A DNA stretch of 64,000 bases, taken from positions 1,105,960 to 1,169,959 of the forward strand of contig NW_003314262.1 of the NCBI RefSeq assembly GCF_000143415.4, read 5' to 3'. Below, piece after piece: positions 1,260 through 61,479 of the stretch. Each line of letters opens with the position of its first letter. The stretch's first letter is position 1. Under the pieces are notes generated by a model. The model was not told where the DNA came from and searched no databases. It was given only the letters and a program-made list of their open reading frames with translations. The position numbers and the translations under genes were made by a program. This DNA comes from Selaginella moellendorffii. Its lineage: Eukaryota; Plantae; Lycopodiophyta.

Positions 1260-1281
1260 GCTCTATTTCGTTAAAGTGGGA
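1260..1281 (+). repeat. Left TIR GCTCTATTTCGTTAAAGTGGGA
   Basis: Exact reverse complement of 14665-14686. Confidence 0.92.
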
Positions 1282-1917
1282 TTTATTCAGTAAAATGGGA
1301 CTAGGTACAAATTTTCAAGTATTTGAAAATGACGTGAAATTATATGTCTTTTGTCCAGGGGCTAGACATATCTGGGGCATGGTGACTAGCGCGGTGACTT
1401 TGTGTCCAGACTAAGTCCATCTGGTTGTATAATAAATCTCATTGTCAAGGTGAACAAGCCGAATCTGAAGCTAAAGAAGAGCAATGGCATGCGCGCACAC
1501 ACTATTTGTTTGTTCATTGAGCGTGTGGTGAGCTTTCCAAAATGAACGTCATTCCTATTAGCCAGACATATAACTTAATGGTGAGAACATTTAGATATTA
1601 TTCAATGTTATCTTTTTCTAACGAATCTAATTGTGAAGGTGTAGCAAGAGGCATTGCTAGTCTGGAGAAGTCATTTAACTCATTTGACCCTTAGTGTATT
1701 TTCATGAAACTAAATAACATTCATATTATTAAGGAATTTCTCTAGTACCTTTTTTTTACGACATAGAGGCTTGCATTTCTTTCAAAGGTGATTTAGTAAA
1801 AGGCCTGAGGGCACATGCCATTCTATTTCTCAGACCGGTATTAAGATATACTAGTGCAAAGGGAAAAAGGTATTTGGTGATCAAGTAAATGGCATGAGGG
1901 CACACACCATTATAAGC

Positions 1918-2192
1918 CTAAGCGCTAGTGGACACCTCCTTTTTGGTACTCTCAGCGGTACTATCATCCTTCTCCGGGTCAGTTGTTTTGCTTTGGATTG
2001 TTGTCTCTGACGTTACTGGGGCGTTCTCGATAGTTGTTAATATTGCCGTTTGTTCAGAAAAATAATCACCTGGAGTATAGTACAGGGAGTTTGGAAGACT
2101 TATATATTCTACATCTTCACCTATCTCCTTCTCCATCTCCTTTTTTGCCTCACTTACAGATTTTGTGCTTGCCATGAGAACGCTCTTCACCC
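1918..2192 (-). CDS. Possible terminal exon of an unknown transposon-borne gene
   Basis: Open frame (KSVSEAKKEMEKEIGEDVEYISLPNSLYY...) downstream of an acceptor-like TATTTTAG. No family recognised. Confidence 0.25.
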
Positions 2193-2888
2193 TAAAATAT
2201 GGAGTTTGTTGTGTTATAAAAGGAAACCAACACACACGCTGCAAGGGAATGATGGTACATAAAGCACGTAAGCCCACAATATGGGTTTATGTGCCATTAA
2301 TATGGGCCACACGCCATATTATTAGATTTATGCATGTGTGATTGGTAAATGCATATGTCACATCATCTTTGTTTTACCTCACACACTATATCAGGCCTAA
2401 TGAACCATATCACATGTGCGCACATGCTATATATATGGAGAAGTATTATGCAAGGATAGAAAAATTCAATGCATGATTATGGAGAGCAATGGCATGAAGC
2501 CACATGCTAAATAACATTTTAGAGAAAGAATTAAAATAGAAACATGCAAACAGTACTGAGTGGACCAAGACTTAGAAGTGCACAATTGAATGAGGTATTT
2601 CTAATAAATATTTCACTCACTTCATATAGGAATGGCTACCACTCTCAAATGGCGTATCGCCTCATGCCATCACCTTGCAATTTGTTATAACAATCCGATG
2701 AATTCATATTTGGCTTGTTCACCTTGAACTTTAAGTAAGATTTGCTAGAACAACTAAGAATTTATACTTGTTATTTGTATCATCTCACCTAGGAATGGTG
2801 TAAGGCCACATGCCATCACACCTCCTCTGATTCAGATTCGGATTGTTCACCTTGAAATAAAATACATTAGAAACTTAGTAAAGGAATA

Positions 2889-5395
2889 TTAATGAATCTC
2901 ACCTTGAACCCGGGTTATGAATGCTCTTGCTGCATCTCTTGCATGGTCTGGCAAGGTGATGGTGGCACTCTGCTTCCGCATCCAACCATGCACAACATTA
3001 TCCACCGATATGCTCATGCTGGGATCCCTTGGATTCAGCACCCATCTCTTTTCTAGGCAATCCTTCGTATATCCGGAACTTGGCTTGAACCACTCCACAG
3101 TTACATTGAAGGAGTTAGTTTCCGCATCCTCCTCTACATCAGTGATGCAGCACCCCACCCATATCATTTGTTTTTTATTACTGGGTCTGACAAGCACGAC
3201 CATTCCTTTGCAGACCTGTACTGGATTGAATGCTGAATCCGGCTTCTTGTTCCTCGGCCCACAATAGTGATCCTCAACATCATTATCTGTCACTGCATTT
3301 CCAGAGGACATTGTTCTGCTACTATCTGGTGCTCTGGGTTCTGGCCAAAAGGACTCTTCCAATTCTTCATATACAACCGGCCCATTTTGGATAGCAGATA
3401 TAATCTTCTCCCAGTACTTGAGCAAAGGCTTGCACCTCTTAAAATAGGATTCTCCACCAAACACCAACCCCCTCTTCCAGAAAGCAATATGCTGTCTAAT
3501 CCCGGCCACTATACTTTCCAAGTCTTTGAGTCCATCCGGGTGTATCGGCCGTGGGGAACCCTGAGGAATCATAGGTTCCCCAGTTATGGGATCTCTCTTG
3601 AAGAGTTCAATGCCGTCCACTGGCAGCCACACTGTGTCCCATTCTCTCATCTTGTACCTCATCACTGGAGCACCGTCACGCATGCTGAAATGAAACTGAA
3701 GAGGCTTGGAGTGGCCAATCAGCATTTCGGATCCGTCCCTGATGTAGCCTCTTACAAACCCCTTAAAGTCTGGAACCTCTGTCACAAGTGTAGCTTCAAC
3801 AGTGCCTTTGATGCAATTTTGGAATTCATCGTAGAGTTGTGGGAGGGTGAGGACATTGGATCGCCGGAGGGACTCTGCCAGGTGACTAAACATGGCATCG
3901 ACGTCTTCATGAGTGTGCCCAACCATGAGAAAGCCAAGTGTAACCGTTTCAAATATGCCTTTGGCAACAAGCATCGCCAAGTACGCAAAGACGTACATGT
4001 TTTTGTTCTCACTGCCAGCATTGTCTGTTTGGAGCAGAAGATGGGGTGGAAGGCCACATCGGCTGCAAGAACTTCCTTGAGATTCTGCTTCGTTTGGATG
4101 AGGCTGTGCATTCACCGGGCGACCAGCCTCGTCGGAATGGCATGAGGCCTCACGTGATAACCCTACAATCTGACGGCCAACATATTCACTGGGATGGCAT
4201 GGGGCCCCACGCGATACTGCAAGCCTTTGCTCCTCCTCTAGTTGAACCCTGTATGGGGTTCGATTGACAAGGGCCTTATGCAAGGGTTGGCCGTTCAACT
4301 CAGTCTGCGCACTTTGCAGAGACCTTAAGTGTTTTGCTAGGGACGCAATCGCACCCCCGCCACCCCATAGAGGTACAAAGAAGTTCCCATAGTTCTGGGC
4401 ACCATGCCCATGAGCGATTATGCCAAACAGAGACACAGGCAGCTGCATGGATGAAGAGATTGCCTTGGGGGTAGGATTGAGTCGAGGTAAGCACGTCTTT
4501 TTCTGGTCCATTTTGTCGTGGATGATGCAGAGGTAAGAGTCAGGTCTCTCCATGGAGAGAATCCTGTTCCATCTTCCAAGAGGCGGGTTTTATGTGGTTG
4601 TTGCTCGCTACATGTCTCGACAAACCTCTTAAAGATTGCCTCTCCATATACAACATGACCCCTGGTTTTGTGCGTACCGTCGTTCCCATGGACTGCCTGT
4701 TGAACCCTTTGTTCCTCGAACTCAGTTTTGATTCTGTAGAATGTGGTTCGAGGGACTCCATAAATGATTCTCCATGCCTTCATGCAGACCAAACCCCTCT
4801 GGAAGACCATGCCCCCCACCTGATGTTCTGAAGCATCAACAAATGACCGTAATGGCTCATACACAAAATTGCAAGCTGCCTTCCAGGACAATGTCTTGTA
4901 TCTTGCTCTCTCCTTTTCAATAGCATCCTAATCAGCATGTTGACAGCACCTCCTCTTGCAACAAGCAACTGTCGAGACCATTCGAACCTCCATCGCCCTT
5001 TTCTACCTTTTCGGTTTGTTGCTCAGATCCCTTTGGCTGCGCTTTAGGAAGGTGTACTTTCTTTGCCCATGAAGAGATGTTCTGTTATCAGTTGTAGTGG
5101 TGTTTGATTGTGAATCCTTCACATTCTCAAACACTAAGTGCCTCAATTTCCACCGCACAATGCTTCCAATAGTCAGACTGTTTTCTTCTGTGTCAACAAC
5201 CTATAAAATTGCAACTCCAATATCATCCCAGCCCAATTCTTGATTAGCAACCGCATCTCTTGGATCGACAACTGTGGCTAAGCCCTCACTTACCACGTCC
5301 CCCTCGGGGTTGTTTAGAAACACCTTTGCCTGAATCCATGTAGCACGGTTCTTAAGATCCACGGAGGGAACATGCATCGCACTTGCGGAGGCCAT
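2889..5395 (-). pseudogene. Transposase, Sola1-like/DUF7869 (DDD type), disrupted
   Basis: Motifs CCKRRCC, VCMKAWRIIYGV, YLCIIHDKMDQKKT, LQTDNAGSENKN and FLMVGHTHEDVDAMFS. One frame runs from 5395 to about 4560 through TAG stops at 5201-5203, 5003-5005 and 4928-4930. A frameshift and probable internal deletion near 4555-4565 leads into ORF 2889-4553. Confidence 0.8.
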
Positions 5396-5759
5396 TCTGA
5401 AAGTGCAAAAAAGAAGTTAAGACAATACAAAAAATGATTGGAGAATGGCCTAAATCATAACATACCAAACAACCTCAATAGCATGAGGCCACATGCCATT
5501 ATTCAAACATGCTATTGACACCACGTGAAATTTCGCATTCACAAAATTGGCATGAGGCCTCATGCCATCTTGATATAAACACAGTTGCAGGCAAGTAAAA
5601 ACATACATGACAATACGCTAGCCATAAAATTGCAAGGGCCCAAGATGGCATATGGCCTCATGCCATTTCTAAATGTGGTCCTAAGCCATTCCATGGTGAA
5701 CATACTAGGAAGCACAAGTGCCGAATATCAAGAGGAAGCGGTAGCCACACCAAAGACAA

Positions 5760-5890
5760 TGCTGCTCGCAACACCGCAACTACTCGTAGTGCCGCTCGCA
5801 ACACCGCAACTGCTCGTAGCGCCGCTCGCACAAACTGCCACTCGCATAAACTGCCGCTCGCAATGGCGCTCGCAATGCCACAACCGCTCG
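5760..5890. repeat. Short GC-rich tandem repeat (about 30-bp unit GCCGCTCGCAACACCGCAACTGCTCGTAGT, decaying)
   Basis: Two near-identical units at 5761-5820, followed by degenerate CGCTCGCAA units. Confidence 0.7.
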
Positions 5891-6689
5891 TAGACGCATA
5901 AACCACAGCTCACAACGCCGCTTACACAAGCAGTGCTCACTGCACTCAACGGAACCAAGAACACGGCGCACAAAAATGATAGACCTAGGAATGAGTTCGA
6001 GAATTCAAAAATAACACACGCTTGAACGTCATATCAAATCCTCTGACAAACCAGATCTTATGATTCCTCTGACAAATTTCAAACTGAGTAGCTTCTAGAC
6101 TTTGCTGTCGGAGGTTGAACTTTGTCACATCATGTCCTTGCCTCGATCCAGCTGTGCCATGTCAGTGATTTGAACTTTGCCATGCCATGTCAGCGATCCG
6201 CGCCAAGATTATTCGCCGTGTAAAGGAATAATTATGCTGTGTGTGTACGTCCATTTATAGCATTATAAGGCCACACGCCATTCAAAGAATAATGCTAGTC
6301 GAGCATTTTTTGGTGCATTTTTGGGTTCAAAATTGCATGAGCCCACACGCTATAAAGTTTACCTGTACCAAAAATAGAAACAACTTTATTTACTTGGGAA
6401 TTTAAGTGGTTGAGGCATTTTTAAACTTACAAACACATGCCCTACTTACATTCCTTTGGTTGCTTAAAATTCAAAAATATTATAAACCTTTCTTTTTGCA
6501 TTTTCAATGTTTTCAATTATGGTTTTTGATTTTTGCAGGACCAGCCTAGTAATCTATTTGCATCCCGTCATGTTTATAGCTAGCTTTCGTTTGTCCCCTT
6601 CGCTAGCCTGAGATACATCTGCTCGGCATCTGCCTCTTACAACATTTGCCCAGAAAGGGCATCTTTCTTCACGCAGCATTTGCCACATG

Positions 6690-6715
6690 TTTAGGGTTTA
6701 GGGTTTAGGGTTTAG
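6690..6715 (+). repeat. Interstitial plant telomeric tract (TTTAGGG)3
   Basis: Read directly. Confidence 0.85.
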
Positions 6716-7558
6716 CAATTCAGTAGCTTGATAAACATGCAAATACAGAACTTGATGCAAAATCCTTTGATATGTCACAATGCCCCTAGGACCATAAACA
6801 CATTTCAATAGAGAGGGTCCTTTCATTTCATAACTCCTTACGTAAATCTTGGTGAAACCAGAGTTAGTGAAGTTAGTTTCTTGTGATCCCGCATCTGATT
6901 GTGATGTCCCTTTGCATTGTCGATGGAAAGGTCAATGCACACCAAACTGTAAAATCTTGGAGCAAAATAATGGTCGGATCTATGGCAAATGCCCCTGAAA
7001 CATTGTAAGGCTCGTGTGGTCTCATGTGGTGTCCAATCGAGATGCTTCTTTGCAAGGTCATCAAGAAAGACATTGTATACCATTCTGTAAAATCTAGTTG
7101 TGATCTAACGGTTGGATCTCCATAAAACTCAAAAAAACCTCGCGCATGTCAGAATATTCTAGGAATATACTCCTATGTGCCCCTGAAAATGGCATGCGTC
7201 CCCACGCCATTCAAGAGATAATGCCAGATGACGCCGAGCAATTTTTGGTGCATTTTTTGGATCAAAATTGCATGAGCCCACACGCTTGAACGTCACATCA
7301 AATCCTCTGACAAACCAGATCTTATAATTCCTCTGACAAATTTCAAACTGAGTAGCTTCTAGACTTTGCTGTTGGACGTTGAACTTTGTCACATCATGTC
7401 CTTGCCTCGATCCAGCTGTGCCATGTCAGTGATTCGAACTTTGCCATGCCATGTCAGCGATCCGCGCCAAGATTATTCGCCGTGTAACTGCTCGGCATCT
7501 GCCTCTTACAGCATTTGCCCAGAAAGGGCATCTTTCTTCATGCAGCATTTGCCACATG

Positions 7559-7583
7559 TTTAGGGTTTAGGGTTAGGGTTTAG
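7559..7583 (+). repeat. Interstitial telomeric tract, duplicate copy with one TTAGGG variant
   Basis: Read directly; lies in the duplicated segment. Confidence 0.85.
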
Positions 7584-10500
7584 CAATTCAGTAGCTTGAT
7601 AAACATGCAAATACAGAACTTGATGCAAAATCCTTTGATATGTCAGGACCATAAACACATTTTAATAGAGAGGGTCCTTTCATTTCATAACTCCTTACGT
7701 AGATCTTGGTGAAACCAGAGTTAGTGAAGTTAGTTTCTTGTGATCCCGCATCTGATTGTGATGTCCCTTTGCAGTGTCAATGGAAAGGTCAATGCACACC
7801 AAACTGTAGAATCTTGGAGCAAAATAACGGTCGGATCTATGGCAAATGTCCCTGAAAAATTGTAAGGCTCGTATGGTCTCATGTGGTGTCCGATCGAGAT
7901 GCTTCTTTGTAGGGTCATCAAGAAGGACATTGTATACCATTCTTTATTTAGCTGAACATCTGGCATTTTTGGAAATACAAGATGCTTTGGAATATCCAAT
8001 CATGCATGGTATAAATATAGCGAGAGTATTAAATGATATCCCAATCATGATCTTTCTTTTGGATTTCGCGTGCATGTAGTCCGAGGAATGATGACGTTGC
8101 GGATTTCTTTTGGATTTCACGTGCATGCATGCGCGCGGCGATCCAGAAATTAATGGTGGCGCCCAAGTCCGAGGAATGATGACGTTGCGGGATTACCAAC
8201 CGTCGTGACATTTCGTGCGTGTGAGGTTAGGTTTTGCATTTTGCTTCGTACTCGCGCTCGCATCGCGCTCCCACTCGCGATCACGCTCACATTCGCGCTC
8301 ATCTACCTTCTCTACAGGTTTCTCGTGTGCATCAGCGTCCACTCGCGCTCGCATCGCGCTCGTGTGCATCGGCGTCCACTTCAAAACACACCCAGTTTGT
8401 AACTTCGCCGCCAACTCCGCCGCCCACTCTGCCACCCACACGCAGCTCACTTGGCGTCCCGGGAGATTTCAGTGCCACTCTCCAACTGTAAGTGGCAGAG
8501 TAGCCTTGCTGCTACGATCCGCTGCACACACAGTGCACATTCGCCAGCGAGTCCGGCCTCGATTGTCACGCCTCCATTCGGCTTCAAATGGTAAGTCTTT
8601 TAGGCCAAGTAGAAAATGGCATGAGGCCACATGCCATTCAGTAGCAACATTGGCATGCATCGATTGGGCTCTCGAGTGCAGTCCGGTTACAGATGGCGTG
8701 TAGCCTCACGCCATCTTAGGATGCAGCCTCAAGACATCTGATGTAGTGGTGAATGGCGTGTGGCCTCACGTTATTTCCAGCTGCTAACTTTTCATCTGTC
8801 AGCTCTAATTGTTGTGCATTTCTGAACAGGCGAGGAATTGCATTCTTCTTCCAACCACTATCAATGTGGATGCAGAGAAGGGGGAGGAGCTCACCAGTTG
8901 GACTTTCGGGATGGAAGGCGAGGATCTGAGGCTGTACAACACAGATGGTGGGAGAAAAGAATGCATGGGGATCCTCATCCAAGTGACAGACACTCCATGC
9001 AGTTCCATGCAAGAATATGGACTGGCACTTGTGGTAGAGACAGCATTCGCCTTCAAGATCCACCTTGCACATCCTAGCGGCTTCCCGGAGGGGGGCAGCG
9101 GCTATGAGGAATTCCTAGAGGGAGCTAGGGAGAGGTTGTCCAGGAGGCCCACAATTTCAAAGACGCTGCGGGTCTATGAAGATCACATGGAATCCACGAA
9201 CCTCACCTACGGCGATGTTCAAAAACTATATTCCAACATTGAGCCGTTGAGAGTGACTCCAGTTCGCGAAGCGAAGGGGAAGGGGGTCGATCTGGAAACT
9301 ACCCCAAAGCAGAAAAGGGTGGTCAAGCTCAAGCCGACGTCTGACTCTCCTGCTCCAAAAAAGAAGCTACTCGGTGATGCCATTGCCTCGGGTTCGAACA
9401 CTACACCCACCAAAACGAAGAGCAGCAAAGAGCAGAAAGAGTAAGAAGAGGCAGCAAAAATTGTTGCAGATAATAGTACTTGTTACTATTCCAACAAAGT
9501 ATATACAATCGACGTGAGCCGTATCGACATCCAAAGCAAATACAACCACAGGCTAGTATCTGATGAGTGGGTGGAGAAATTGAAGCAGAAGATGCTGGCA
9601 AGTCCAGTAACACCCGACATCGCAGACGTGATCCCCTACTACCGAACAATGAAGGGCGAGACGAGGTTTCCAGACTTGATCAATAGGAAGGTGTTGGACG
9701 ATCAGAACATCCGGTTCTATGCCGTCTCCGGGCAGCATTCTAGCTTGGCGATGCAAGAGATAGTTGTGGATATTATGGTGGGCGAGGAGGTGAAGAAAGT
9801 CTTCAAAACAAGAGTTGTCCGCCTGATAAAAGGCAACTCGCCCCTCCGATCTATCATATACATCTCCCACGCGCAGAATGTCAAGCAAGAAACGTGTTAC
9901 AAATCGGGTCTGCACGAAACATTGGCACGAACACGGAAGCTCTGGGTTCAACTGAAGAAGCCACAAAAACCAGGACAAGGACATGCACTAGCAACTAGCG
10001 CCTGGCAGGTAAGCCTCGTTGCATGTGGCATAGCATGTGGCCTCACGCCATTTCCATTGCAGGAATTCTCGAGTCTTCTCTCGAAAACACTGGGGGTCAA
10101 TGACACACTCAGCATCCATAATATTCTACTCGCGACAAAAGTTGTTTTTGACAAATGGGTAGATGTGCTGAGGAGGTACCATGACGGGGAGTTGCTAAAC
10201 TCAATGGGTGTGGAGGACGGTCGGAAGCCCAATGATTTGAAGATCAACACCTTGCGTTTCTCGCGGTCTCTAGACGATGACGACCTTTTGACAGTGGCTA
10301 ATGCTCTTTTACATGGTGAGGTAGTCTTCAACAAGACCAAAATGACTCCCGGCCATATTGTGACATACGAGGACTTGTGCACGACTTTGAGAGCTCGTGC
10401 GCTATTGAAGGATTAGATCTTCGAGCAAGTGGCCATGGAGAGGGTGAGCATTGACACCATGCAAGAGATGATGGAAGAGCTGGAGTTGTCAAATGAAGAC

Positions 10501-11057
10501 ATCGACGAGTACGTGAAGGGGGCCCCCAAGTTCATCGATCTGCTGCGGGATGCCACGAAAAGTAAAGCTGAGAAGTTGGATCAGTATCCAAATTTCATTA
10601 AGAGGTATGTCAACCGCCGGCTTCAGAAACAGCTCGACCCTGCAGCAGAGGCCTATCGAGAACCTTACCGGGTATACGTGAATTCGGATGAGGATCAAAG
10701 GTGGAGGAGCATCGTTTCCCGCGGAGATGAGCAGGTCAAGAACATCTTTTGTGTGATGGACTTCACAAACAAGGAGATCACTCATGCAGACGAAGTCAGC
10801 TCCATGATTGACTTAATGGTGGGACTTGCGGAGGTGGAATCTTCAGTCCACTATATGATCTACGACTCCGAATCCTATCACAAGTTCTGGAAGGCTTTGA
10901 ACGAGGTGAAGGCTCGGTTGAAAGGCAAGGAGATGTGGGAGATCCATGGGATAATGGCTAAGAAGAAGATACCGATGAATGTCCGCATCTTCACACTCGC
11001 CCTTGTTATTGGTCCTGCAGCAAAGTGGGACTGGAGTGACTTCCCAGCTTCGTTCGA

Positions 11058-11157
11058 NNNNNNNNNNNNNNNNNNNNNNNNNNNNNNNNNNNNNNNNNNN
11101 NNNNNNNNNNNNNNNNNNNNNNNNNNNNNNNNNNNNNNNNNNNNNNNNNNNNNNNNN
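11058..11157. other. Assembly gap (100 N)
   Basis: N run. Confidence 1.
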
Positions 11158-13383
11158 TGAAGACGGCTATAGAGCTTTGGAATCCAAAGAAAGCTCCAGG
11201 TGCAGCATGGGAAATGCTCAGCTTGGTCTTCAATGCAATAGCAGGTGGGTCACCTGCTTCCGACTCCAAGGGCAAATGCGTTGTTGAGTACAACTGTGGC
11301 GGACTATTCTTTCGAGCCGCACTACTCAAGGGTGTCCCGTGTGTTGCGGTGACAAACTCCATTGAAGAGGTGACTTCAATGGAGGATATAATTACAGTTG
11401 CCAAAGAAAAACAGTATCTTCTCTGCGAACCTGGTGAGTACGCACTTTAAGTTTAAATGTTATCTCACAAGCTCTGTATGCAGGAGCATGGCCACCCCCA
11501 GATGCTGAAACGGCGTTAACAGCTACTGTTGAAGATACCCATGTTGGGCCGAGCTCACAACCTGCACAAGGTAAGGTCACGTGAGGCCTCACGCCATTTT
11601 GATTATAGATCGTTGTGAATATTCAGACACGAGGACTGAAAAGCGCACTGGTGGCGCGTCGAAGAAGGACAAACAGACAAGCAATAGGAAAAAAGGAGGT
11701 ACAAATTATATTTGCAATGGCGTGTGGTCTCATGCCATTCCTTGCAGGAGACACTTCTTCAAAGGCAAAACAGGCAAGCACCAGCCAAGCTCAAACTGAC
11801 AGTGGTCATAAAAAGCGAAAGCACGTTGGACAATCGTCGGGATCAGAGGCGTTTGATTCGAAAAGGAAGAAGGGCAATGAAAAGATGATAGGTAATGCCT
11901 CGCGGTTATGGCGTGTGTGCTCATGCCATTCATTGCAGATCAAGGGCTGAGTGAAAGCAGCCAGTCACCACCTCCTGACTCAGATTCCTATGGCAAACTC
12001 CCCTTCCCCAATCTCAATGGAGAGGTACAATGGATGAGGGATGCTTTTCAAGTCAGGGCCACGTTTTTCTCATCTCGTCATCTTCGAAGGGTGCAAGAAC
12101 GTGCAGAAACCATGTTAAGATAGTCAGGTGAGAATACGGTCCTAGGTCACACACTAAAACAGGCTATGGATGTCTTGTATTTTGAGATGGAGACTCGGCC
12201 AAATGATTTTCCCAAGATGGTCCTGGAAGAACAAGCCATCCAGCCTGAGCAGCCTATGGAAGAAATGCAGGAGGGGGATGAGGAGCCAGAGAAAGATAAT
12301 GAGCAGGAAGAGCAGAAGGACGAAGAGGAGGACGAAGAAGAGGAGGACAAAGAGGACTTGGATGGTCCTCACAATGGTGACGATCACAATAACGACGACA
12401 ACGATGATGACAACGATAGCCAGCCTGAGGTGGCCAAAGAGCAGCGGAGGAAGGTCATACAAAACAAACCATCAGGTAAATAATAGTTCATCCATTCCTA
12501 ACCTTTTACCATTTCTAACATTATCCATGTAGGTCGCAGAGCAAATGGTAAATAGAGATTATTCAGTTGAATTAAGATACAAACTCTAGCCTTTAGTATC
12601 GAGGAAGGATAGTGCCAAGCAAGGGTCGAAACGTATGTCCAATCCTTCAGAATCAGCAGTGCGCCCAAGTGATATCTGTCCTAGTTCCTCAATAGCAGTT
12701 GATGGTAAATATAGTATAGTCGATTTAATGTGCTAATGAGTTTGTTTTTAGTAGCACGGGAGGATACCATCTCAATCGAAGGGAGATATTTGGACATGCA
12801 TATGGATCCGCCAGTGGACTCTACTTGCTTGCAAGAGTCATCAGAGCTGGTGGAGGCTACTATCCATATCAACACCAAGCAAGCTGACCACGCTCCACTT
12901 GATGCTGCCCATACCACAGAGTCAATCTTGTCCACGTATCCAACTGACAGTGACCAGGCGCCATTGGACCCGCATGAGGCTGCCCCAGCCACCGAGCCGG
13001 TCGTATCCTCATTTCCAATGGACTCAATGTGTGCCCAATCGTCTGACTACGCACCGTTGGAACCTCCCTACACCGCCCCTGCTGCCTGTTCGGTCATGTC
13101 CACTTTGCCAACGGAGGCACCAGCTGAAATGGCGTGTGATCACACGCCATCGGAACCATCCCATGCCACAGTTGAGCCAGTTGTACCAGAGTCTACAGCT
13201 GAAATGGCATGTGCCCACATGCCATCGGATGCGATTGACCCCACATTGCAGAGGAGAGTATTTCCGCCCTTCACGTTTCCTCGACCAAAACCCTCTCAAC
13301 GACCATCGGGAGCACCATTCGCTAATATTGTAGATGGTAAAATTGACTTGTACCATTTTTTATGTTGACGCATTTCATTTCAG

Positions 13384-14246
13384 AGTCACGGAGAAGGTAC
13401 TGTATCGTTTTTGATCTAAACGGTGTCATTTTCTCCCATGAGCGTGGCTCGTCCTCGAATGTCACTGCACCCTCCAAAGCTTGCGGTCGCAAGTTGGTCA
13501 AAAGAGACAGATTCACATTAATCACACGGGAGAAACTGTGGGATCTAATAATGACCATGCGACACTTAAAACAGAGGGCCGGGTTCAATTTGCAATTGGG
13601 AGTTTGGACATCCATGATGCGCCACAATGCATTAACGTTGCTACAGATGATGCATGATCAGACGCGAGTAATATTACCATTTGACTTTCTCCTAACGCAG
13701 GAGGATTGCTTGACTATAGTCCATGTGAGGGGTAGCAAGCCCATCTTCGTCAAGCCAGAGGCTGTAGTGATGAACCGGACTGCTAGGTCAAGTGAAATCC
13801 TCATCATCGATGACTCGCAGATTAAAACTGCAGCGAACACACACACATATGCAGTGCACCCCATCTCTTGCAGTATGAAAACTAGGGAGAAGAAACCGTA
13901 TGTTCTGGGGGACCTTGCAAAACGGCTTGGAGTGATGGTGATAGAGAACCGGCCAGTCCAGGAGGTGGCTGCAGAAATCAACCAAATGGCAGATGGAATG
14001 GTATATCAGAAGCCATTTGATCAGACAGACACCAGTCATCATTTATGGCATGTATATTGTCTAGCCAAGCACTATCCGCATCTCCATAATCTGCTCAACC
14101 GGATGGGTTCTTTGACCACTGAACATGAGCGTGGACGTATTAGAGAAGAGATGGCATTACTATTGGGTTTAAATCCTGATAGTGTGGAGAGTGATGAAAT
14201 TCCAAGATTATTGTATAGGCGTTGGAGGCAAAAAATAACAGTCTGA
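13384..14246 (+). CDS. FCP1/NIF-like HAD-superfamily domain exon (DLNG variant)
   Basis: HAD motif I-like VFDLNGV, motif II-like GVWTS and motif IV-like IIDDS...K. Joined in frame to the upstream exon by intron 13336-13383. Confidence 0.7.
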
Positions 14247-14664
14247 GATGGCATGTATTTATTTTAAAATGTAACTTATTATGGCATGGGGTTCTATGCC
14301 ATTGTATTAATATTAAAAGACAATTCTTTGAGAGGATTTGCATTATACTAGAAGTGTTACAGCATGTTATTGGAAGTCTACGAAGTTGTTTTATTAATAA
14401 GGGGAAAGTAAAGATTGAATGGGGACTTGGGCTCCACCTAGACTCGGAGCAACTGAGCCAATATTAAAAGGATGGAAAGAAATTGGACGACGATGATAAG
14501 GAGAAGAGAGAGGTGAAGTAGTGGCAGGGGGAGGAGAAGTGATTGAGTAGACATTTCCTTGTTTAAAATAAAATGGCATGTGCCTCAATGCAGTTGAATT
14601 TTGTTATATTTATATACTATATAAAGGTTTGGAAACCTTATTTTACAAGTGGGATAATGACAAT

Positions 14665-14686
14665 TCCCACTTTAACGAAATAGAGC
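14665..14686 (-). repeat. Right TIR TCCCACTTTAACGAAATAGAGC
   Basis: Exact reverse complement of 1260-1281. Confidence 0.92.
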
Positions 14687-15149
14687 TTTCCTCCTCCTTT
14701 CCCCAGTTTGGGACTTCGAGACAATGTTTCGAAACACCGTGGCCCTACGCGAGCCCCATAAGTACTCTCCCCACCTTCCACCTTTAAGTGCTATAGCCAT
14801 GGGCTTAGAGCGAGGGTCCGTTGAGCCACGCCAAGTATCCAACTAGGTAGTGCCACCCACATTTGGACTGGGAGCATCGGCCATTCAATCTCCTGGAGGA
14901 ACTAGAGCTGGCTCTTCAATACTTCACTAAATTACCCTGCTTGTTGGTCGGTATTCACTCTAGCCTTGGACTTCCCAATAGTTATCCCATTACCCAACAT
15001 CTGGGTATAGCCTTCATGGGCCAAACTCTCAACCTTTCAAGTCAAAGTTTTTAGTCCAAACGTGTTATATTCGTTTGGCTTTCGCTTCGGCCACTACCAC
15101 GTGGCACCCTTTTGGTTCCACTTTGGGGCTTAGGGATTTGTGTCTCACA
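14687..15149 (-). mobile_element. Remainder of the LTR interrupted by the DNA transposon
   Basis: Ends in TGTGTCTCACA, the reverse complement of the LTR start TGTGAGACACA. Aligns to parts of the 17809-19073 LTR. Confidence 0.75.
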
Positions 15150-15842
15150 ACTCCACCACCCATAAATGAAGTTCAATGTCCTTATTGAACAATAAACTAT
15201 TTTATCAAGTAATACCAACAAATATTACCCTTCCTATCATTGGCACCTAGCCAATATTCGTCAAGGGTTGGACACCAAAAGCTCACCCTGCCTTGTTCAT
15301 CCTCTAAGGAGCATAGTCTCTTCAACATAGAGACTCTATTGACCACTTGTGGTGGTTCTTTCCTTTTTATTGGTTTAGCTCTCGCTAAACCTATTAGAGA
15401 CACCTTCTCGATCTCAATCCCACTACTCCTCCTCGAGTAATTTTAACTTCCATCGATATAACCATTCCTCTTTAGAACTTTTAGTCTTGACTTCTTGAAG
15501 TCAATTTACTAGGTGTCTCCGACACCTTTCATTGCACATATTGTGCAAACTCCACTTCCCCATCCTAGGAAGTTCTCTACTTGAGGGCACCATCATCTTC
15601 TTTCCTATTTTGTGCCACCTTTGGCACTAAGTTCCAATTATCCTAATTCATGCTAGGGCTGTCCACAACCCTATCAACCTTACTTTCAAGTTCACACCTG
15701 AACTGTAGTGGAGAGCCATGTCTTCCCAACTTGCTACTCCTCAAGGATAGGCCCACTCCGAGGACTTTCCAATGCTAACACTAGTGGTGATATACTTCAA
15801 CACCAATAAAAGTCAGACTAAGGAACAGCTTTGATACCAAGT
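15150..15842 (-). mobile_element. Short (about 690 bp) non-coding internal region of a non-autonomous TRIM-like LTR element
   Basis: PBS TGGTATCAAAGC on the minus strand at 15828-15839, next to the LTR end. PPT GGGTGGTGGAGT on the minus strand at 15150-15161, next to the other LTR. Confidence 0.75.
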
Positions 15843-16678
15843 CGTAAGCGATTAATTTTTCCATTCTACTTTAGTCACTTAACCATACTTCCAACCACTT
15901 GGAGAAGTCTCATTCACAACCTCCATAAGTCCTATTCCAAACTTGGGCATACTAGCCCCGAGAAGGGCATCCCTACCACTCAACCTTTGCACTTGGCCCA
16001 AGTGCTCCACATGTCCGATCCCATGACTGACACCCAAAGGTACCACTGACATATTGGCCGAATATTGGCAAATTGGAAAGGAAAAATTTGTGGCTTACAC
16101 CTGCTTGTCGGTCCGCATTCACTCTAGCCTTGGACTTCCCAGTGGTTATCTGGGTACAGCTTTCCTGGGCCAAATTGGCCTTTCCTGGCCAAACTGGCTC
16201 TACTAGAGTCCTCCCCCCTTACTATACTTTTGGAGCTCACCAAACCCCCCTAGGGTCCGGAAGACGAACACTTTGGGCTTTCACCCTCTCAGACTCGGAC
16301 TCGGACTTGAACTCGGACTCGGACTCGGGCTTGGGCTTGGGCTCGGTCTCGGCCTCAGCCTCGGTCTCGGTCTCAGTCCCGATCTCGATTTCAGTCTCGA
16401 CTTCAGACTCCATCTCGGGTCCTTCTCAGACTCTGTCTCGGGTCCATCTCAGACTCTTCCATGTGTCATGTGTCGGTCCGTCTCTTTTGTAGAGACTCAC
16501 TTATTGCTCACTTCATGTTTGTTCCTCAAGCACTTCATTAGGAGTTCCACTCCCACTCTCAACCTTTCAAGTTAGAGCTTTTAGTCTAAACATGTTATGC
16601 TCGTTTGGCTTTCTCTTTGGCTACTACCACATGGCACCCTTTTGGCTCCACTTTAGGGCTTAAGGATTTGTGTCTCAT
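15843..16678 (-). mobile_element. LTR (internally deleted copy) with GAGTCC/GAGACC microsatellite
   Basis: Same termini and internal blocks as 17809-19073 and 63057 onward. Confidence 0.75.
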
Positions 16679-16710
16679 AGTGACCTCTCGGAAAGTCCAA
16701 ATTCAGGACC

Positions 16711-19073
16711 TTACACATTGGTATGACAAAAGTGAATGGGCATGACCTTAGCGTAGCAAACTGATATGTCGATAATACTTTTGGGTGTTGGTAATGGGAT
16801 CAGACATATGGAGCACTTGAACCAAGTGCAAAGGTTGAGTGGCATGGATGCCATTTTCGGGGATAGCATATCCCCAAGTCTAGAATAGGACTTATGGAGA
16901 TTATGAGTGAGATTCCCCCAAAAAGTTGGAGGTGTGGTTAAATGACTAAAGTAGATAGAGCCCATAATAAAAAATGCTAAAGAGACTTACTAGGGGTGAA
17001 CACCCCTTGGACTCAGCAAAGCAAAGCCTTTGATATGGAATCGAAAGAATACCTCGAAGGTGGAGGTAGTGATCCTATGTTGCTTGGTGTAACAATCAAA
17101 GGATAGCAACAAAAGATAAATGGCCAAGAATAATCCATAGAAATCATTAGAAGGAATCCAAATGGCAAAGTTAGGAATACTTAGGTGTTGAATGTTAATG
17201 AATTGTGGAAAAAGAAATATATTTTTAAAGATGAATTTTCAAATGTTTTAATTTGGCGAAAGGGAAAACTCTTAGGGAGGGAGTGGCAAGGTAACCAAAT
17301 GATAGGGCTATGGACAACCCTAATACAAATTATAGATAAATGGAACTTAATGCCAAGGGTGGCACGAAATATAAGAGAGGATGATAGTGCCCTTAAGTAA
17401 AGAACTTCTTAGGATAGGGAAGTGGAGTTTATACAATAAATGTAATATAAGATGTCAGAGATATTTAGGAAATTGACTTTGAAAAGTCAAAATTAAAAGT
17501 TCTAAAGTGTGATAATTATATTGATAAAAGTTGAGACTACTCGGGAATGAGTTGTTGGATTGAGATAGAGAAGGTGTCTTTAATAGCAAAGACTAAACAA
17601 ATATAGACATATGATCAAATGAGTTTCTAAATTAAAGAGACTATACTCATTAGAGAATGGGCAAAGCATGGTGAGCCTTTGGTGTTGAACTAATGATAAA
17701 TATTAGTTACATGCCAAGGATGAAAAAGGGTAATCCATAGTGGGGTTACTTTATTAAATGGTTTATCATTTGATGAGGACATCAAACTTTGTTTATGGGT
17801 GGTGGCATTGTGGAACACAAATCTCTAAGCCTCAAAGTGAAGCCAAAAGCGTGCCATGTGGTAGTAGCTGAGGCAGAAGCCAAATGAATATAACACATTT
17901 GGACTAAAAACTCCAACTTGAAAGTCAAGAGTGGGAGTGGAACTCCCAAATGAAGTGATCGAAGGCCGAGAACGAAATGAGCAACAACTGAGTCTCCAGA
18001 AAAAGGGATCCGAAATGGAGTCTGAGATGGAGTTTGAGATAAACCTAAGATAGAGTCCAAGATAGACCCAAAATAGAGTTCGAGATGGACCTGAGATGGT
18101 GTCCAAGATGAAATTTGATATGGAGTCCGAGATGGACCTAAGACGGAAACCGAGATGGAGTCTGAGATGGACCTGAGATAAAGATAGAGACCGAGACCGA
18201 GAATATACCCTTGTATTTGGTAATGATATAAACACTGAGGAGTCCAATGCTAGAGTGAATATAGACAAACAAGCAGGGTAGCTTGGTGAATTGTTCAAGA
18301 GCCGGCTCTACCTTCTCTAGGGGATCGAATGGTCGATGCTTTTAATCCAAGTGTGGGTGGCACTACCTACTTGGATACTTGGTATGGCTCAATAGAATCT
18401 CACTCTAGCCACATAATTAGGGCACCCAAAGGCAAAAGGTGGGGAGAGTACCCATAAGGCTTGCATAAAGTTGTAATGTTTTCAAATATTGTCCTAAAGT
18501 CCTAGATTGAGGAAAGGAAGAGGAGAAATCCTCTTGTGTGGTGACTAAAGATGCAACCATATGGCAAGGAAGTTCTAGAGATCAGTGGGATGTAATGGTT
18601 CGGCCTTCAAACCTTGACTCAGTGGTAGTGTTAGTGAACACATCTGTGGATAGAAAGGGATTTGGTGGGGACCGAAAGAGGATATTAAGGAAGGTTATTC
18701 CCTATGTTTAAGGGCATCCTAAAAATGCTAAGAAGTGGATTTGGGATGATCATTTATGGATAGATGGCCTAGTCTTTGAAAGACAGGACTGTGATGTAAA
18801 TTGTGTTGGATCACCAGTGTAACAAAGGTGAATGGGCATGGCCTTAGTGTAACGCACTGATATGTCAGTAGTATCTTTGGGCATTGGTTATGGGATCAGA
18901 TATGTGGAGCACTTGAACCAAGTGCAAAGGTTAAGTGGCATAGATGTTATTTTTAGGGTTAGCAAGTCCCTAAATCCAAAATAAGATTTATGGAGATTGT
19001 GAGTGAGACTTTTCCAAGTAATCAAAGGTGTGGTTAAGTGACTAAAGTAGAATGAAAAACTTAGTCGCTTACA
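16711..19073 (+). mobile_element. Second, inverted copy of the same LTR family: LTR fragment 16711-16958, internal region, PPT 17797-17808, full LTR 17809-19073
   Basis: 17300-17808 is the reverse complement of 15150-15670. The LTR has TG...CA ends (TGTGGAACACA ... CGCTTACA). Confidence 0.75.
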
Positions 19074-19079
19074 ATTATA

Positions 19080-19850
19080 TGTTTTTATTCCTTCAGTTCT
19101 TAGTTGTACTCTTAAAAGTTACCCTGTGCTCTAGTTTCTTCATTCCTTGGCTATATACTTAGGAGTTTTACTCCATCCCTTCATTCAAATATTCACTCCT
19201 CAGATCAACCTTGGTAAACATTCAAGCTTCACTAAGCTTATTGAATATATCATTCATATGTGGTATCAACATTTTATCCTTCACTATGGTAGTCAATAGA
19301 TATCCACATTGAATTATTCTTATTCTTCAAGAGCAAGATTGACATACCAAATATAAACTTACTTGGCTAAATAAATCCAAACTTAAATAACACTTTGACT
19401 TATTATTGAATTTTATGTTGTTGAAATGGATGTTGATAGATCAATTTTATCCTAACTCCAGTATAAGCTCATGTTTCACACCTTGTAATAGAGGCAACAA
19501 ATAAGGAGGTTCAGATGGAAAGACATTAACAAACTTTTGAGTACATCCCACATTATTGCTTCTCCCCCACATGTGTTTTAGTCCTTGTAACTTGAAAGTG
19601 TCTTTCCATTATGAAAAGCTTACTGCAAATATATAATGGAGAGCATAACAACTTAAATGTTGCATGCTTAGATCACATTTGATAGACCCATCTCTTAGAC
19701 TTTTGTTATCCTCAATGTAAGCATGCTTACATGTAGTATTTGAGCAAGAAGAGTAAAGTTGTTTTTAGATCTTTATTGATAGGTGTTGCAATCCAACCAA
19801 GTGACATTTGTGCATCATGAAACAACACTTCAGAAAATTAGGAAAAGTTG
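19080..19850 (-). mobile_element. Decayed Ty3/Gypsy pol fragment
   Basis: Minus-strand translation gives VLKKFVNVFPSEP..LLPLLQGVKHELILELG, PSKFIFGMSILLLKNKNNSMWISIDY and TKVDLRSEY. These are degenerate forms of the Gypsy RT N-terminal motifs PSxSPWGAPVLFVKKKDGSxRMCIDY and SKIDLRSGY. Confidence 0.6.
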
Positions 19851-44369: not shown

Positions 44370-45318
44370 GAGAGAGATTACCGTCTCCCATCGGCCTTTG
44401 GTTTGGGCTCGACGAGCGCAGCCATAGTGGAAGCTCTTGCGGCACTTGCTCAAGTAGCATCCCAGCGCGGCGCCTCTGGAGCCACAGGCATGGCACTTGA
44501 GCTTGCTGGCTCTCCCAATCTCCGACTTGACATTGCGTATTTGCTGATCACCGCCCTCCTCTCCCCCATCACCATCGCCTATGTAGTAAACGTTGGGAGC
44601 CCTGCGTGATCAAGAATGGATCATCATCCGTGCACGACAGATGCTGATACGTACCACTCGGCACAACGAAGGTGGACGTGCACGGCTGTCGGGCGATCAT
44701 GGCAAGCTTCTCCTTGATGGCAAGATGTGGCTGGGATCAAGCTCCGGTTCCGATATTCCATGAGCGGCCCTGCCTCCTAAAAGCACACCAAGTTTACCCG
44801 AAACTTCTGTGTCATGTATCAAAGAGAGAAAAAAAAAAAAGAATGCTACCTCTGAATCGCCACTGGCTTGGCAGAAGCGGCACGACCAGGAGAGATCATT
44901 CTCCTGCTGTGCTGTGACCGTCCTTGGATCTGGATCTGGCGCATCCGTTTCAAACACTTCCTCGCGCTTGTTGCTGTTGTTTTGCTCAACCTCTGGGACG
45001 GGCTTCATTGTGTTGTTCTTGGCGTCCGATTCGTCTTGGTGGAGCAAGAGAGATGTGAGGAGCTGCTCCTCCCCAAACTGGAAGGCTACCACGCGTTTCT
45101 TGGCAGGAAGCAATGGAATCCCGCAGAAGCGCTCCCTGACGGTGCCGGCGCTGCTGGCCGCTGGCCGGAATCTCTTCTTGGGCGGGCAGCAGCTCAAGTT
45201 GTAGAGCGGCGCCTCGGTGGAGCAAACCGTGGATTGCTGCTGCACTGGAAGAAGAAAATGTAATGCGCCATGAGATCTATGAGGAGGGAGGAGATTTACC
45301 TGGGCGAGCTTCCATGGC
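44370..45318 (-). CDS. Unknown protein or gene relic with Cys/His zinc-finger-like residues
   Basis: ORF 44697-45245 with PPKKR/PAKKR and WSCRFCQ, then a downstream HLRCAEW. Exon structure unresolved. Confidence 0.3.
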
Positions 45319-45478
45319 GAGCGAGAGAATGCTAGAGCGTGGACGACGATGCCCTAGGGTCGCGTTGAGAGCGCGCGCGCGGTTTCGATTTTTCTTCTTT
45401 CCCGCCTTATGCGACGCAATTCAAGCGAGGTCATATGAAATGAAAGAGCAGGCAAAAAGTTTAGGGTTTAAGGAGGAG

Positions 45479-46444
45479 ATGGTGGTGGTGGCGACGGGCG
45501 CCCTCCCTGCTCCCACGGGATTAGGGCTTGGGCGCAGCAGCAGCAGCAGGGAGAGGAGGAGGACGAGGAGGAGCAGCGGGCAGATCCGCGCGGTATTGCA
45601 GTGGAATCGGCGGCCGGAGCTGGCTGGGAGCCGACCCCGGGTTGTGGTGGTGACATCGGGCAAAGGCGGCGTGGGCAAGACGACGGTGACTGCGAATCTA
45701 GGTATGTGCTTGGCGCGGCTCGACTTCAGCGTGGTTGCCATCGACGCGGACGTGGGGCTGCGCAACTTGGATCTGCTGCTGGGCCTGGAGAATCGCGTCA
45801 ACTACACGGCAATGGAGGTGCTCAACGGCGAATGCCGGCTGGATCAAGCGCTGGTCCGCGACAAGCGATGGACAAACTTGGAGCTCCTGTGCATCAACAA
45901 GCCCCGCTACAAGATGCCCATGGGATTCGGCGGCAAGGCACTGACGTGGCTCGTGGACGCGCTCAAGCAGCGCCCCGACGGATGCCCCGACTTCATCCTC
46001 ATCGACTGCCCCGCGGGGATCGACGCCGGTTTCATCACCGCCATCACACCGGCTAACGAGGCCGTGCTCGTCACCACCCCGGACATCACCAGCCTGCGAG
46101 ACGCGGATCGCGTCACGGGTCTGTTGGAGTGCGACGATATCAAGGACATCAAGATGATTGTCAACCGGGTGAGGAGCGACATGATCAAGGGGGAGGACAT
46201 GATGTCGGTGCTGGATGTCCAGGAGATGCTGGGCTTGCCGCTGCTTGGTGTCGTTCCAGAGGACTCGGAGGTGATCAAGAGCACCAACCGGGGGTACCCG
46301 CTAGTGCTCAAGAAGCCTCCGACTCTGGCCGGACTGGCATTGGAACAGGCGGCTTGGAGACTGGTGGAGAAGGACAGCATGAAGGCGGTGCTCATCGAGG
46401 AGACTCGACCCAAGAGAGGATTCCTGCCTTTCATGGGAGGCTAG
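45479..46444 (+). CDS. MIND1: Plastid division ATPase MinD
   Basis: VVVTSGKGGVGKTT, DADVGLRNLDLLLGLENR, ILIDCPAGIDAGF, with a transit-peptide-like N-terminus. Probable start is ATG 45479. Confidence 0.95.
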   Translation: MVVVATGALPAPTGLGLGRSSSSRERRRTRRSSGQIRAVLQWNRRPELAGSRPRVVVVTSGKGGVGKTTVTANLGMCLARLDFSVVAIDADVGLRNLDLLLGLENRVNYTAMEVLNGECRLDQALVRDKRWTNLELLCINKPRYKMPMGFGGKALTWLVDALKQRPDGCPDFILIDCPAGIDAGFITAITPANEAVLVTTPDITSLRDADRVTGLLECDDIKDIKMIVNRVRSDMIKGEDMMSVLDVQEMLGLPLLGVVPEDSEVIKSTNRGYPLVLKKPPTLAGLALEQAAWRLVEKDSMKAVLIEETRPKRGFLPFMGG

Positions 46445-56720: not shown

Positions 56721-57299
56721 TCCAACGGGCCTCGGAGGGGAATTCGAGGCTGGCAAGCATGCGCGCTGTGCTTTGCTGCAGCCACAGGCCAGCAGTACTT
56801 TGCAAGTGCCGGCTGTGAGGAGGCTGATGGTTTTGGCGTGTGGAGACTTGTGTTACAAATTCTGTTGTGCGTAGAAAAGACACTATAAGGGTATATTTCT
56901 GGAGCCTCGTGTACTTCTTGTGTGAGGACTCAATTGTGGTTTATGGCTTGGACCACAGACATTTGAGGTGGGATAGTTGATATGGATAGTTACTGATATT
57001 ATGATGATGAGATTTTTACAGCCCTCCTGATTTTGCATTCTTATCACTCTGGATTCTCCACTAGGCTAGACAATAGAAAGAGAATGGAGGAAATTAGCAA
57101 GGATTGTTATCAGCAGCAAGGAAAAACTTCATTATTAAGGCCTTAACATGCTAGAAGATTTATTAAGACAGTTTAGATTTTAGACTTTATTTTTTCAATG
57201 TGGAAATAGAAATGAAATATAAAAATGTGCATATTCAATTAACCCTTGGTTTGAACTGCTTATTGAATGTTATAATGAATCTCAAAAACTTGTGGTTTA

Positions 57300-58620
57300 A
57301 CTTGCCATTCCATTGAATAAGAAGCTTTTTAGAAAAACCATATACCATAAGATTAAGAAAATAAGATCATCAACTTTGTACTCTATTGGTGGACAATAAT
57401 GAGAGTTGTAGTATCATTGTTGTCCTAGTTATATGCAGCTTAAGTATTGAATAAATTTCACTTGAACCAATGAAATAATATTTATTAAATATTGATCTCA
57501 AGACCTTACATCAGCAGCTCATTGCAATCACTCTATTAGCAATATTGGATTATGATCATATAAAAGTTCATATGGTGAAACACTAATAACATATACATAT
57601 AAAAGGGATGGCAAAATAACCATCCCAATCCAAATGTTAAAAGTTCACATATTTCGCAATCATCTCTTTGAATGTTTGAATGAGCCATTCTACCAAACCT
57701 TTCATTTCGGGATGATAAACACTTATGAAAGTGTGGCATATCTCCAACCAAGATGTTAAAATATAAAATGCTTTAACCATTATTTAAGAGAATCCACTTT
57801 GATATAAATGCTAAAACATCACTCGATTGAGGAGGAAGTATTTAATATTAGTTGTATATACACTACCAACAATACCAACTTTCACTTAGTGAGTCAAATA
57901 GTCAATGGCAATAATAACACACTCATTGCTAATAATCGACTATCCCTAGTTTAAATGCCACCAACTCAAACAGATAAAAAATTACAATTGACACTAACCA
58001 TCATTCCATAACATAAAGAGGAGTATTATGAGTTTAGCAAATATAACTATGTACATACTGAATAATATTATGTCACATATCAGGCCAATAGAAAAACTTA
58101 CACAACTTCTTAATCACACGATAATGTTTTATAGGCCCGTTGAGAATAGAAGAATCACGATAAACATAGAAAAAGTGTGGAATATAGATCAAAAGTACTA
58201 TCAGCTATAAATGATCATCAAGATCCATTCTACAAAATAAAAAAGGTCATCCTCAAAGTGATATTGAGAATGTAAATGTTAAAATGGCAAATCATTAGCA
58301 AGTGATGTAGAATTTTCAAATCTATTGTAAAGCCTTTGGATTTATAGCTTGATCTTTTGAGCCTCATGAACTTTGTTAAAAGAAAGTAAATCTTGTTTTG
58401 CACTTTGTGAATATTGCACATTAAATATATCAATTGTCGATGGTATGGAATCTTCATCCAAAAAATCCACAAATGTTGGAAAAACATGCTCATCAGGAAC
58501 ATGAGAAGAGAAAAAAAAAAGGGAGACGAGCTTGAAAAGGGGCATTAGCATCAACCATAAAACTCCCTAAGCAATAAACAACCTTAAAAACATATATATA
58601 AAGCTTTAGAGCCCACTAAT
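57300..58620 (-). mobile_element. Heavily decayed LINE-like RT fragment
   Basis: Minus-strand remnants resemble QxAFxxGRSIxxN (about 57930-57965) and IKVDxxK (about 57785-57810), in the expected order. Confidence 0.35.
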
Positions 58621-59007
58621 TAATATGACCAACTAAGTTCTTTTACTTCAATAATGAAGTAATTGTAGCATGATCACCTTCTACTAATATCTAAAAACCA
58701 TATAAATATATATAAAACTTCTCAAACTATACAAACTGCTACTAAACAATCCTCTATAGGGGAGTAGTTAGTTGTAATGTACAATAGAATAATGTTAATT
58801 AGGCATTCTTGTGCTCTTTTGCATTAAAACACCCTTGAGAATGATATCAAAAGCATTCACACACAAAATAAAAAGTTGAGTGTAGTCAAAGTACTTCTCC
58901 CTAGCCAATCCAAAAGATTAATAGTGTGAGGAAGAAGGTACACATCCGGGATAATCACTTTATTTATTGAATGATAGTCGATGTAGTAGCAAATACTCCT
59001 ATCTATC

Positions 59008-61450: not shown

Positions 61451-61479
61451 AGGGTATAAACCACATACGGTACACTATG

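Follow-up and report, generated by a model that had tools for sequence, protein, structure and literature searches.

A family-specific 22-bp palindrome dispersed through a DUF7869 transposon of Selaginella moellendorffii, and a predicted ParB-like protein as its candidate reader

The window analyzed here, a stretch of 64,000 nt from Selaginella moellendorffii (contig NW_003314262.1), contains a DNA transposon of 13.4 kb (positions 1260-14686), which is bounded by identical 22-bp terminal inverted repeats (TIRs). The element carries two divergent genes, one for a DUF7869 transposase and one (hereafter gene 2) for an accessory protein with a ParB-like front half, and a 22-bp palindrome recurs throughout its length. 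Contigs from public sequencing runs (one organism, few samples) cover the whole element and run beyond the TIRs into flanks that differ from one another (five right, one left), which identifies it as a multi-copy family. The window copy is a decayed one: both of its genes are broken, and it differs from the other copies mostly by C-to-T and G-to-A changes.

The 22-bp motif is real and, within the window, confined to the TIR-bounded transposon. The original prediction had described it as dispersed from position 1800 onwards and restricted to the element, with at least 22 full-length copies plus partials. Our scan with a symmetrised position weight matrix (PWM), which measures confinement within the 64,000-nt window only, bears this out: at a threshold of at least 12 bits there are 25 sites among 13,407 positions inside the element (1260-14687) and none among the 50,530 remaining positions, and at 8 bits or more the number inside is 27. 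Markov shuffles of the element yielded a maximum of 1 to 3 sites at 12 bits, leave-one-out scores were 22-36 bits for 21/21 seed sites, and the scores fall from ~20 to 10 bits with just one site between. Pattern matching places the palindrome at 21 positions with up to three mismatches and at 25 with up to five, in keeping with the predicted copy number; a single site matches exactly. The dispersal therefore stands, but its start has to be moved, as the sites extend from 1484 to 14281, with weak ones at 6260 and 14573. The flanks of the sites are mostly unrelated, also as predicted: of 351 pairs only 6332/7267, 1484/2795, 13129/13204 and 4137/11908 lie above the 99.7% point of the null distribution, which rules out a tandem-repeat origin for most sites. 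Clusters of sites are spaced ~0.5-1.5 kb apart, more evenly than in a cluster-preserving null (P 0.005-0.04, four post-hoc thresholds) and not more evenly than 25 uniform sites (P=0.19). We regard this as a post-hoc hint only, which long exons could explain.

It had further been suggested that the arms of the palindrome co-vary and that their symmetry is maintained, as for the site of a dimeric protein or for a hairpin. The four examples quoted (sites 8616, 5547, 8693 and 13129) are correct, but the arms of the 25 sites as a whole do not co-vary: summed over the 11 position pairs, 204 are complementary, as compared to 203.0 expected if the arms are exchanged at random among the sites (p=0.45). 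At positions 6/17 complementarity is found in 12 of the 25 sites (12.2 expected), and at positions 9/14 an identical base (A..A or T..T), which is unable to pair, occurs in 15 (p=0.007). Nor is there any gain in folding energy, with -7.8 kcal/mol for the real arms and -8.0 kcal/mol for swapped ones. The lack of covariation makes a hairpin unlikely and, together with the excess of non-pairing bases and the absence of a folding advantage, leads us to reject it. Independent variation of the half-sites is what would be expected of a double-stranded protein site, and the pattern fits a dimeric one; this half of the suggestion is upheld by the enrichment, the placement of the sites, an asymmetry at a CpG and a protein of the element with a predicted ParB-like fold. 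In the 50 half-sites, this CpG (C5/G6) reads CA in 29 cases, CG in 17, TG in three and CC in one. Symmetric deamination would yield CA and TG equally, so C5 looks protected while G6 tolerates A, and plain CpG decay is insufficient as a source of the R/Y (purine/pyrimidine) positions. Selection of the sites might bias these counts slightly; given the gap between 20 and 10 bits, TG variants would have shown.

As had been proposed, the sites occupy subterminal DNA and the intergenic hub as well as coding sequence and (predicted) introns (Table 1). Only four of the 25 fall into coding DNA, although by prediction 56% of the element is coding (p=5e-5); of these four, two lie in a variable transposase loop and two in a low-complexity duplication of gene 2, while the other 21 are outside. 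The first predicted intron of each gene holds three sites. Five of the ten predicted introns of gene 2 bear sites, three of which lie 9-11 nt before the acceptor, and the sense strand of these introns mostly shows the T..T form; 15 of the 25 sites lie outside predicted introns. The TIR shares no half-site with the motif, which is thus not an end-recognition sequence.

Table 1. Features of the transposon and positions of the palindromic sites in the window
Feature	Position	Strand	Remarks
Left TIR, 22-bp identical core	1260..1281	+	inverted pair 1257-1284 / 14662-14689, 93%; at 1258 a contig from another copy departs from the window sequence
Seven sites (1484, 1800, 1889, 2409, 2489, 2649, 2795)	1484..2816		between left TIR and transposase stop; PWM 21-30 bits
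DUF7869 DDE-type transposase gene	2889..5395	-	PF25273 E=2e-41; broken
Two sites (4137, 4194)	4137..4215		in frame in poorly conserved transposase loop; top-residue share 0.16, 0.02 vs 0.49-0.61 in flanking conserved blocks
Three sites (5478, 5547, 5645)	5478..5666		predicted intron just upstream of transposase ATG; acceptor 5397 adjoining ATG, candidate donor near 5704
Hub sites (6332, 7189, 7267; weak 6260)	6260..7288		inside ~860-935 bp internal duplication
Accessory gene 2	8588..14246	+	~ten predicted introns; stops 9442 and 10414, N-run 11058-11157; broken; divergent to transposase
Three sites (8616, 8693, 8753)	8616..8774		predicted intron 1 of gene 2; GT 8591 ... AG 8829, in frame after ATG 8588
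Predicted ParB/Srx-fold domain (SGQHS motif) and helical domain	9445..10413	+	model pLDDT 83; homologue open reading frames end at same place in WKV-like words
One site	10030		inside 54-nt in-frame predicted intron 10009-10062 of gene 2
Helical linker and degenerate beta-class N6/N4-methyltransferase-like region	10417..11438	+
Three sites (11576, 11717, 11908)	11576..11929		one in each of three short predicted introns
Two sites (13129, 13204)	13129..13225		75-bp duplication in low-complexity coding DNA
FCP1/NIF (HAD)-like C-terminal domain	13347..14246	+	DxN replacing DxD; PF03031 E=4.9e-4, under curated cut-off
Site 14281 and weak site 14573	14281..14594		near right end
Right TIR	14665..14686	-	contigs of other copies enter five different flanks behind 14686 or 14688

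Other copies of the family add a site-bearing acceptor before 11786, and one variant contig has a full site adjoining 14647. Past site 5547 (from 5568), contigs of three runs extend into a 14-bp perfect palindrome and a second copy of the motif, a longer perfect inverted repeat that the window lacks, which is either a family variant or an assembly fold-back. We also considered that the site-bearing introns might be mobile, which is unlikely, as the open reading frames (ORFs) of homologues end where the intron 10009-10062 lies and as most of the sites lie outside predicted introns. Between the two genes, the hub duplication contains three TTTAGGG telomere-type units at 6692-6712 and 7558-7580, which we take to be telo-box-like. 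Short repeats containing CGCTCGC occur upstream of both genes (5760-5900, 8250-8370), six in the element and four in the rest of the window, and are perhaps a second, promoter-near motif.

The introns of gene 2 were deduced from GT-AG and reading frame only, and remain predictions, because the contigs of the one run presumed to be RNA are unspliced pieces. The ParB-like domain was not recognized in sequence searches of Pfam, PHROGs, NCBIfam and PDB, and the front half of the protein matched no family. Among 1.84 billion representatives, 22 weak matches with the SGQHS motif in common were found, the named homologues being from Selaginella, Diphasiastrum, Riccia and Calypogeia; word-index protein searches revealed no relatives of greater length, and no relatives were present in the viral contigs or phages searched. 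P0059 is a repetitive chance match and was excluded from alignments A2, A4, A5 and A6, but A3 includes it as a row. The similarity to ParB was suggested by the predicted structure. The top ten Foldseek rows are all Noc, ParB or KorB (233-325 aligned columns, E 1.2e-3 to 1.9e-2), and the independent VIA comparison gave PadC (Z 9.4; root-mean-square deviation, rmsd, 3.1; 99 aligned), KorB (Z 8.7, rmsd 11.3, 150 aligned) and pNOB8 ParB (Z 8.4, rmsd 6.2, 215 aligned), followed by a serine kinase, sulfiredoxin and SbnI. The alignments to KorB, pNOB8 ParB and Spo0J include the helical domain. Based on these models, we predict that the front half of the gene-2 protein has the N-terminal fold of ParB, Noc and KorB. 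It is also predicted to form a homodimer via its N-terminal domains, with a score of 0.58 as compared to 0.00 for the best of three controls; the mark applied was reached by 21/30 solved homodimers and 0/23 monomers, and among eukaryotic proteins by 17/29 and 0/30, respectively. In these models, which included ATP and Mg, contacts agree by at least 72% and the predicted local distance difference test score (pLDDT) is at least 73. The score may stem from likeness to solved ParB dimers.

The order of domains in gene 2 is shared by R1sor_025532 of the liverwort Riccia sorocarpa (P0092, 1064 residues), which belongs to the cluster of one gene-2 match: a ParB-like domain, a helical domain, N6_N4_Mtase (PF01555 at 727-788, E=5.8e-4, under the curated cut-off), an acidic region and NIF (E=1.9e-5). 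NIF is above the cut-off in both P0066 and P0092, and there is no direct alignment between the NIF-like domain of the window and that of Riccia. Window positions 11160-11447 align with residues 766-802 of P0092 (E=9e-5), which adjoin and overlap the PF01555 match. The S-adenosylmethionine (SAM)-motif region of the methyltransferase-like stretch of P0092 aligns weakly with M.RsrI (E=0.18), and the window reads EYNCGG there. For the gene-2 homologue P0061, a feature search of the ESM Atlas put fungal DUF3723 clusters first (0.93, 151/256 features), which is a lead only; DUF3723, presumably a gene of fungal Starship elements, may be a distant relative with a ParB fold. No ParA-like ORF was found in the element, and a host gene of the MinD/ParA family (45140-46444) sits 30 kb away.

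In the family search the transposase matches only DUF7869, and neither a Mutator-type transposase nor a VANC domain was found in the element; the transposase may be linked to Sola. In the window copy its 5' part has three stops, as seen against the family protein P0002, and ~0.3 kb is missing near 4565-4568, where the contig of another copy has ~307 more bases. It has 57 relatives, the named ones mostly from liverworts. We also collected 80 metagenome loci with related transposases, which are not independent and fall into 35 groups. The motif of the window is absent from all 80. Palindromes were surveyed in the 63 loci of at least 2.4 kb, several of which exceed the host-DNA control (2-3 sites, and 5 in one CAG repeat), while many short ones do not. 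Thirteen loci, picked for high counts and refined with PWMs trained on their own sites, yielded seven different palindromes of ~14-22 bp with 4 to 23 copies each, which are dispersed in L001, L012, L017, L058 and L074 and partly in tandem in L027, L068 and L080; GGCC is present in several of these family motifs. In L001, eleven copies at 524-1830 follow each other in steps of ~100-145 bp upstream of an intact transposase frame of 1070 codons. A private palindrome is common in this group of transposons.

The explanation that we favor, and hold to be probable by a modest measure, is that the palindrome is a parS/OB-like self-recognition tag for the transposon's own ParB-fold protein encoded by gene 2. 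In its favor we count the low coding share (4/25), the confinement (25 vs 0), the ParB-like fold and the retention of C5, and the seven family-specific palindromes beside related transposases suggest a reader that evolves together with its element. The front half of the protein would dimerise, with each half reading one half-site, as do ParB, Noc and KorB on parS, NBS (the Noc-binding site) and OB. If selection keeps many sites along the whole element, the protein could coat copies of its family and no other DNA, and would be supplied in trans by intact copies, that of the window being broken. The least secure steps are the last ones, in which the coat would recruit the methyltransferase-like and FCP1-like parts to the transposon and regulate it, most likely such that its two divergent genes stay open to transcription in the face of host silencing, a role that VANC plays for VANDAL.

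Several results weigh against this explanation. No Foldseek match of the gene-2 model reaches E 0.001, and the helical part alone compares weakly with isolated DNA-binding domains of ParB and SopB (Z 2.8-3.0), which falls short of establishing a helix-turn-helix (HTH) reader. Active beta-class N6/N4 DNA methyltransferases have a catalytic (D/N/S)PP(Y/F) and an FxGxG SAM motif; by eye, the methyltransferase-like part has no DPPY-type motif (DFTN, DLTH and DLRR stand at the likely place), and the corresponding region of P0068 gave a poor model and a fold search without usable match. In 20 sequences Box II reads GQHS (17), GQHT, GQHL or GAHS (one each), and the arginine of GxxR, which is required for nucleotide binding in the ParB folds tested (PMC12704722), is present in none of them. 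The gene-2 protein is not a member of the canonical ParB CTPases, clamps that bind and hydrolyse CTP and slide away from their site. Finally, no homologue of gene 2 was detected in the 80 related loci, most of which are too short for a second gene, with a profile that is shallow. Two of them, L012 (7.1 kb, 98-bp TIRs) and L058 (4.65 kb, weaker AT-rich TIRs), are apparently complete and possess palindromes and a transposase alone, which makes the transposase a serious rival reader.

According to this rival, which we find doubtful, the palindrome is an internal site for the transposase or its N-terminal DNA-binding domains, used in end synapsis or self-activation, and gene 2 is a passenger or second-hand user of it. 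Apart from the palindromes that accompany transposases where no gene 2 is found, it can draw on a weak HTH_psq match in the transposase (E=0.28) and on a report of a Mutator transposase that suffices by itself to bind and activate copies of its own element (bioRxiv 2026.08.24.746577). However, the peaks of the AtMu1 transposase are located at TIRs in the same source, and here the TIRs lack even a half-site, while sites are spread through gene 2, in its introns and coding parts, at a distance of kilobases from both ends. The strong sites of L012 are located 1.9-2.9 kb inwards from its left end, with none close to the right one, and the relatives that have only a transposase may have arisen by deletion and be served in trans.

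An alternative form of reading by the gene-2 protein, which we consider unlikely, is a bacterial-type clamp at work in plant chromatin. Here the ParB-fold dimer would load at palindromes spaced about every 1.2 kb and spread over the transposon with a rewired nucleotide site (GQHS and an invariant arginine at residue 123) or with none, carrying the methyltransferase-like and FCP1-like modules that would protect its own family alone against silencing; from one family to the next, protein and palindrome would change together. Loading at a site and diffusion without CTP are described for ParT, but ParT lacks the CTPase fold altogether (PMC12260392).

Neutral spread of the motif with homogenisation by local duplication and gene conversion, in the absence of any protein reader, appears very improbable. 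Some sites do lie in duplications (6332/7267, 13129/13204), arrays in L027, L080 and L068 are tandem, and conservation among copies is weakly shown (no listed difference falls into sites vs ~3 expected, p=0.05, with 80 of 345 differences listed); yet the same 22-bp block is conserved at every site amid mostly unrelated flanks, and persists in frame in coding DNA. Exploitation of a conserved host transcription factor could account for the clusters of sites in the first intron of either gene and in the upstream region that the genes share, and for the GGCC of several family motifs, but each family has a different palindrome and the 50 kb of DNA around the element, which hold at least six host genes, are free of sites, and we regard this as about equally improbable. 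A single-strand hairpin or splicing signal is hardly tenable, since the arms show neither compensatory changes nor a folding gain and most sites lie outside predicted introns, although the CTCAY of the motif resembles the branch point (consensus yUnAy) and the intronic sites described above, including those close to acceptors, would agree with it; a few sites may be under an additional, secondary constraint as branch points.

If the palindrome is indeed a tag for the gene-2 protein, it has counterparts elsewhere. The pairing of ParB with a palindrome has already been proposed for transposons of red and brown algae; what is new here is the land-plant case, the dispersal over the whole element and the defined site. 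No land-plant transposon of the ParB-plus-palindrome type and no mention of DUF7869 was found in the literature searched, the supplements of the algal papers being outside the search. Sola1-1_Ec32 of the brown alga Ectocarpus has a ParB and N4/N6-methyltransferase gene opposite its transposase, the idea being untested there (PMC12477816). It likewise combines, in a DNA transposon, a ParB-like domain with a domain of DNA-modifying type (for which our match is below the Pfam cut-off), whereas the Selaginella element has a degenerate methyltransferase-like part, an FCP1-like domain and a DUF7869 transposase, and in that text no binding site is named for the algal one. PAG3 of the red-algal Plavaka (EnSpm/CACTA) is a ParB-like accessory protein for which inverted repeats in its own element were proposed as binding sites, again untested in the portion consulted (bioRxiv 10.1101/2025.02.11.637652). 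The combination with element-borne inverted repeats is as in our case, with its 25 dispersed sites. Unlike here, PAG3 is fused to a 2-oxoglutarate (2OG) oxygenase and its repeats form tandem arrays beside the gene, as far as described there; the Selaginella sites stand singly in unrelated contexts over the whole element, including introns and coding DNA, in a land plant and with another transposase.

With the bacterial and plasmid systems KorB/OB, Noc/NBS and ParB/parS, gene 2 shares the predicted fold, the predicted N-terminal dimer and a palindromic site repeated along the element (PMC11790492, PMC12704722), and KorB regulates genes at a distance from its 16-bp OB site (PMC11790492). It differs from them by the missing GxxR arginine, the lack of a ParA partner, the 22-bp site, the extra C-terminal domains and the setting in eukaryotic chromatin. 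A further comparison is with VANDAL/VANC, which is marked by a sequence-specific loss of DNA methylation. VANC of Arabidopsis reads family-specific motifs of VANDAL elements and has been shown to act against silencing (PMC5735166). There too, the motif lies in non-coding DNA and introns and differs between families, and an accessory protein is the reader (here a proposed one), but VANC motifs are tandem repeats of 8-9 bp in the same orientation in a Mutator-type element, with no ParB fold reported in the part of the paper seen (PMC5735166). According to one preprint, no transposon group other than VANDAL is known to bind its own sequence and modify it (bioRxiv 2025.02.11.637652). If the gene-2 protein reads the palindrome, it would represent a second, independent system of transposon self-recognition, of bacterial origin, and the families would provide a set of orthogonal protein-DNA pairs. 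In plants of lycophyte and liverwort type, the element offers a sharply defined 22-bp site and a foldable candidate reader of 320 residues, to which seven palindromes specific to other families can be added.

As to the surroundings of the element, the window copy has no target duplication (flanks TAAT / TTTC), and in other copies AT or TT adjoins the TIR. The Sola superfamilies (Sola1-3) are characterized by their transposase clade, TIR ends and a 4-bp target duplication. One family of repeats resembling a long terminal repeat (LTR) retroelement occurs in fragments, partly inverted, at 1-1257, 14687-19100 and 57000-64000, and the two flanks of the element stem from different parts of it, which explains the missing duplication. 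The gap of 100 N at 11058-11157 corresponds to ~53 bases in the contig of another copy, across which the frame of gene 2 is open. The neighbors of the element are ordinary plant genes: the intron-poor host genes at 27259-56100 include a long coiled-coil ORF, an SCP/NIF phosphatase, a MYC-type basic helix-loop-helix (bHLH) protein, the MinD/ParA-family ATPase, an S1-EF-Ts fusion, an ORF consisting only of the Nup98 autopeptidase, and leucyl-tRNA synthetase.

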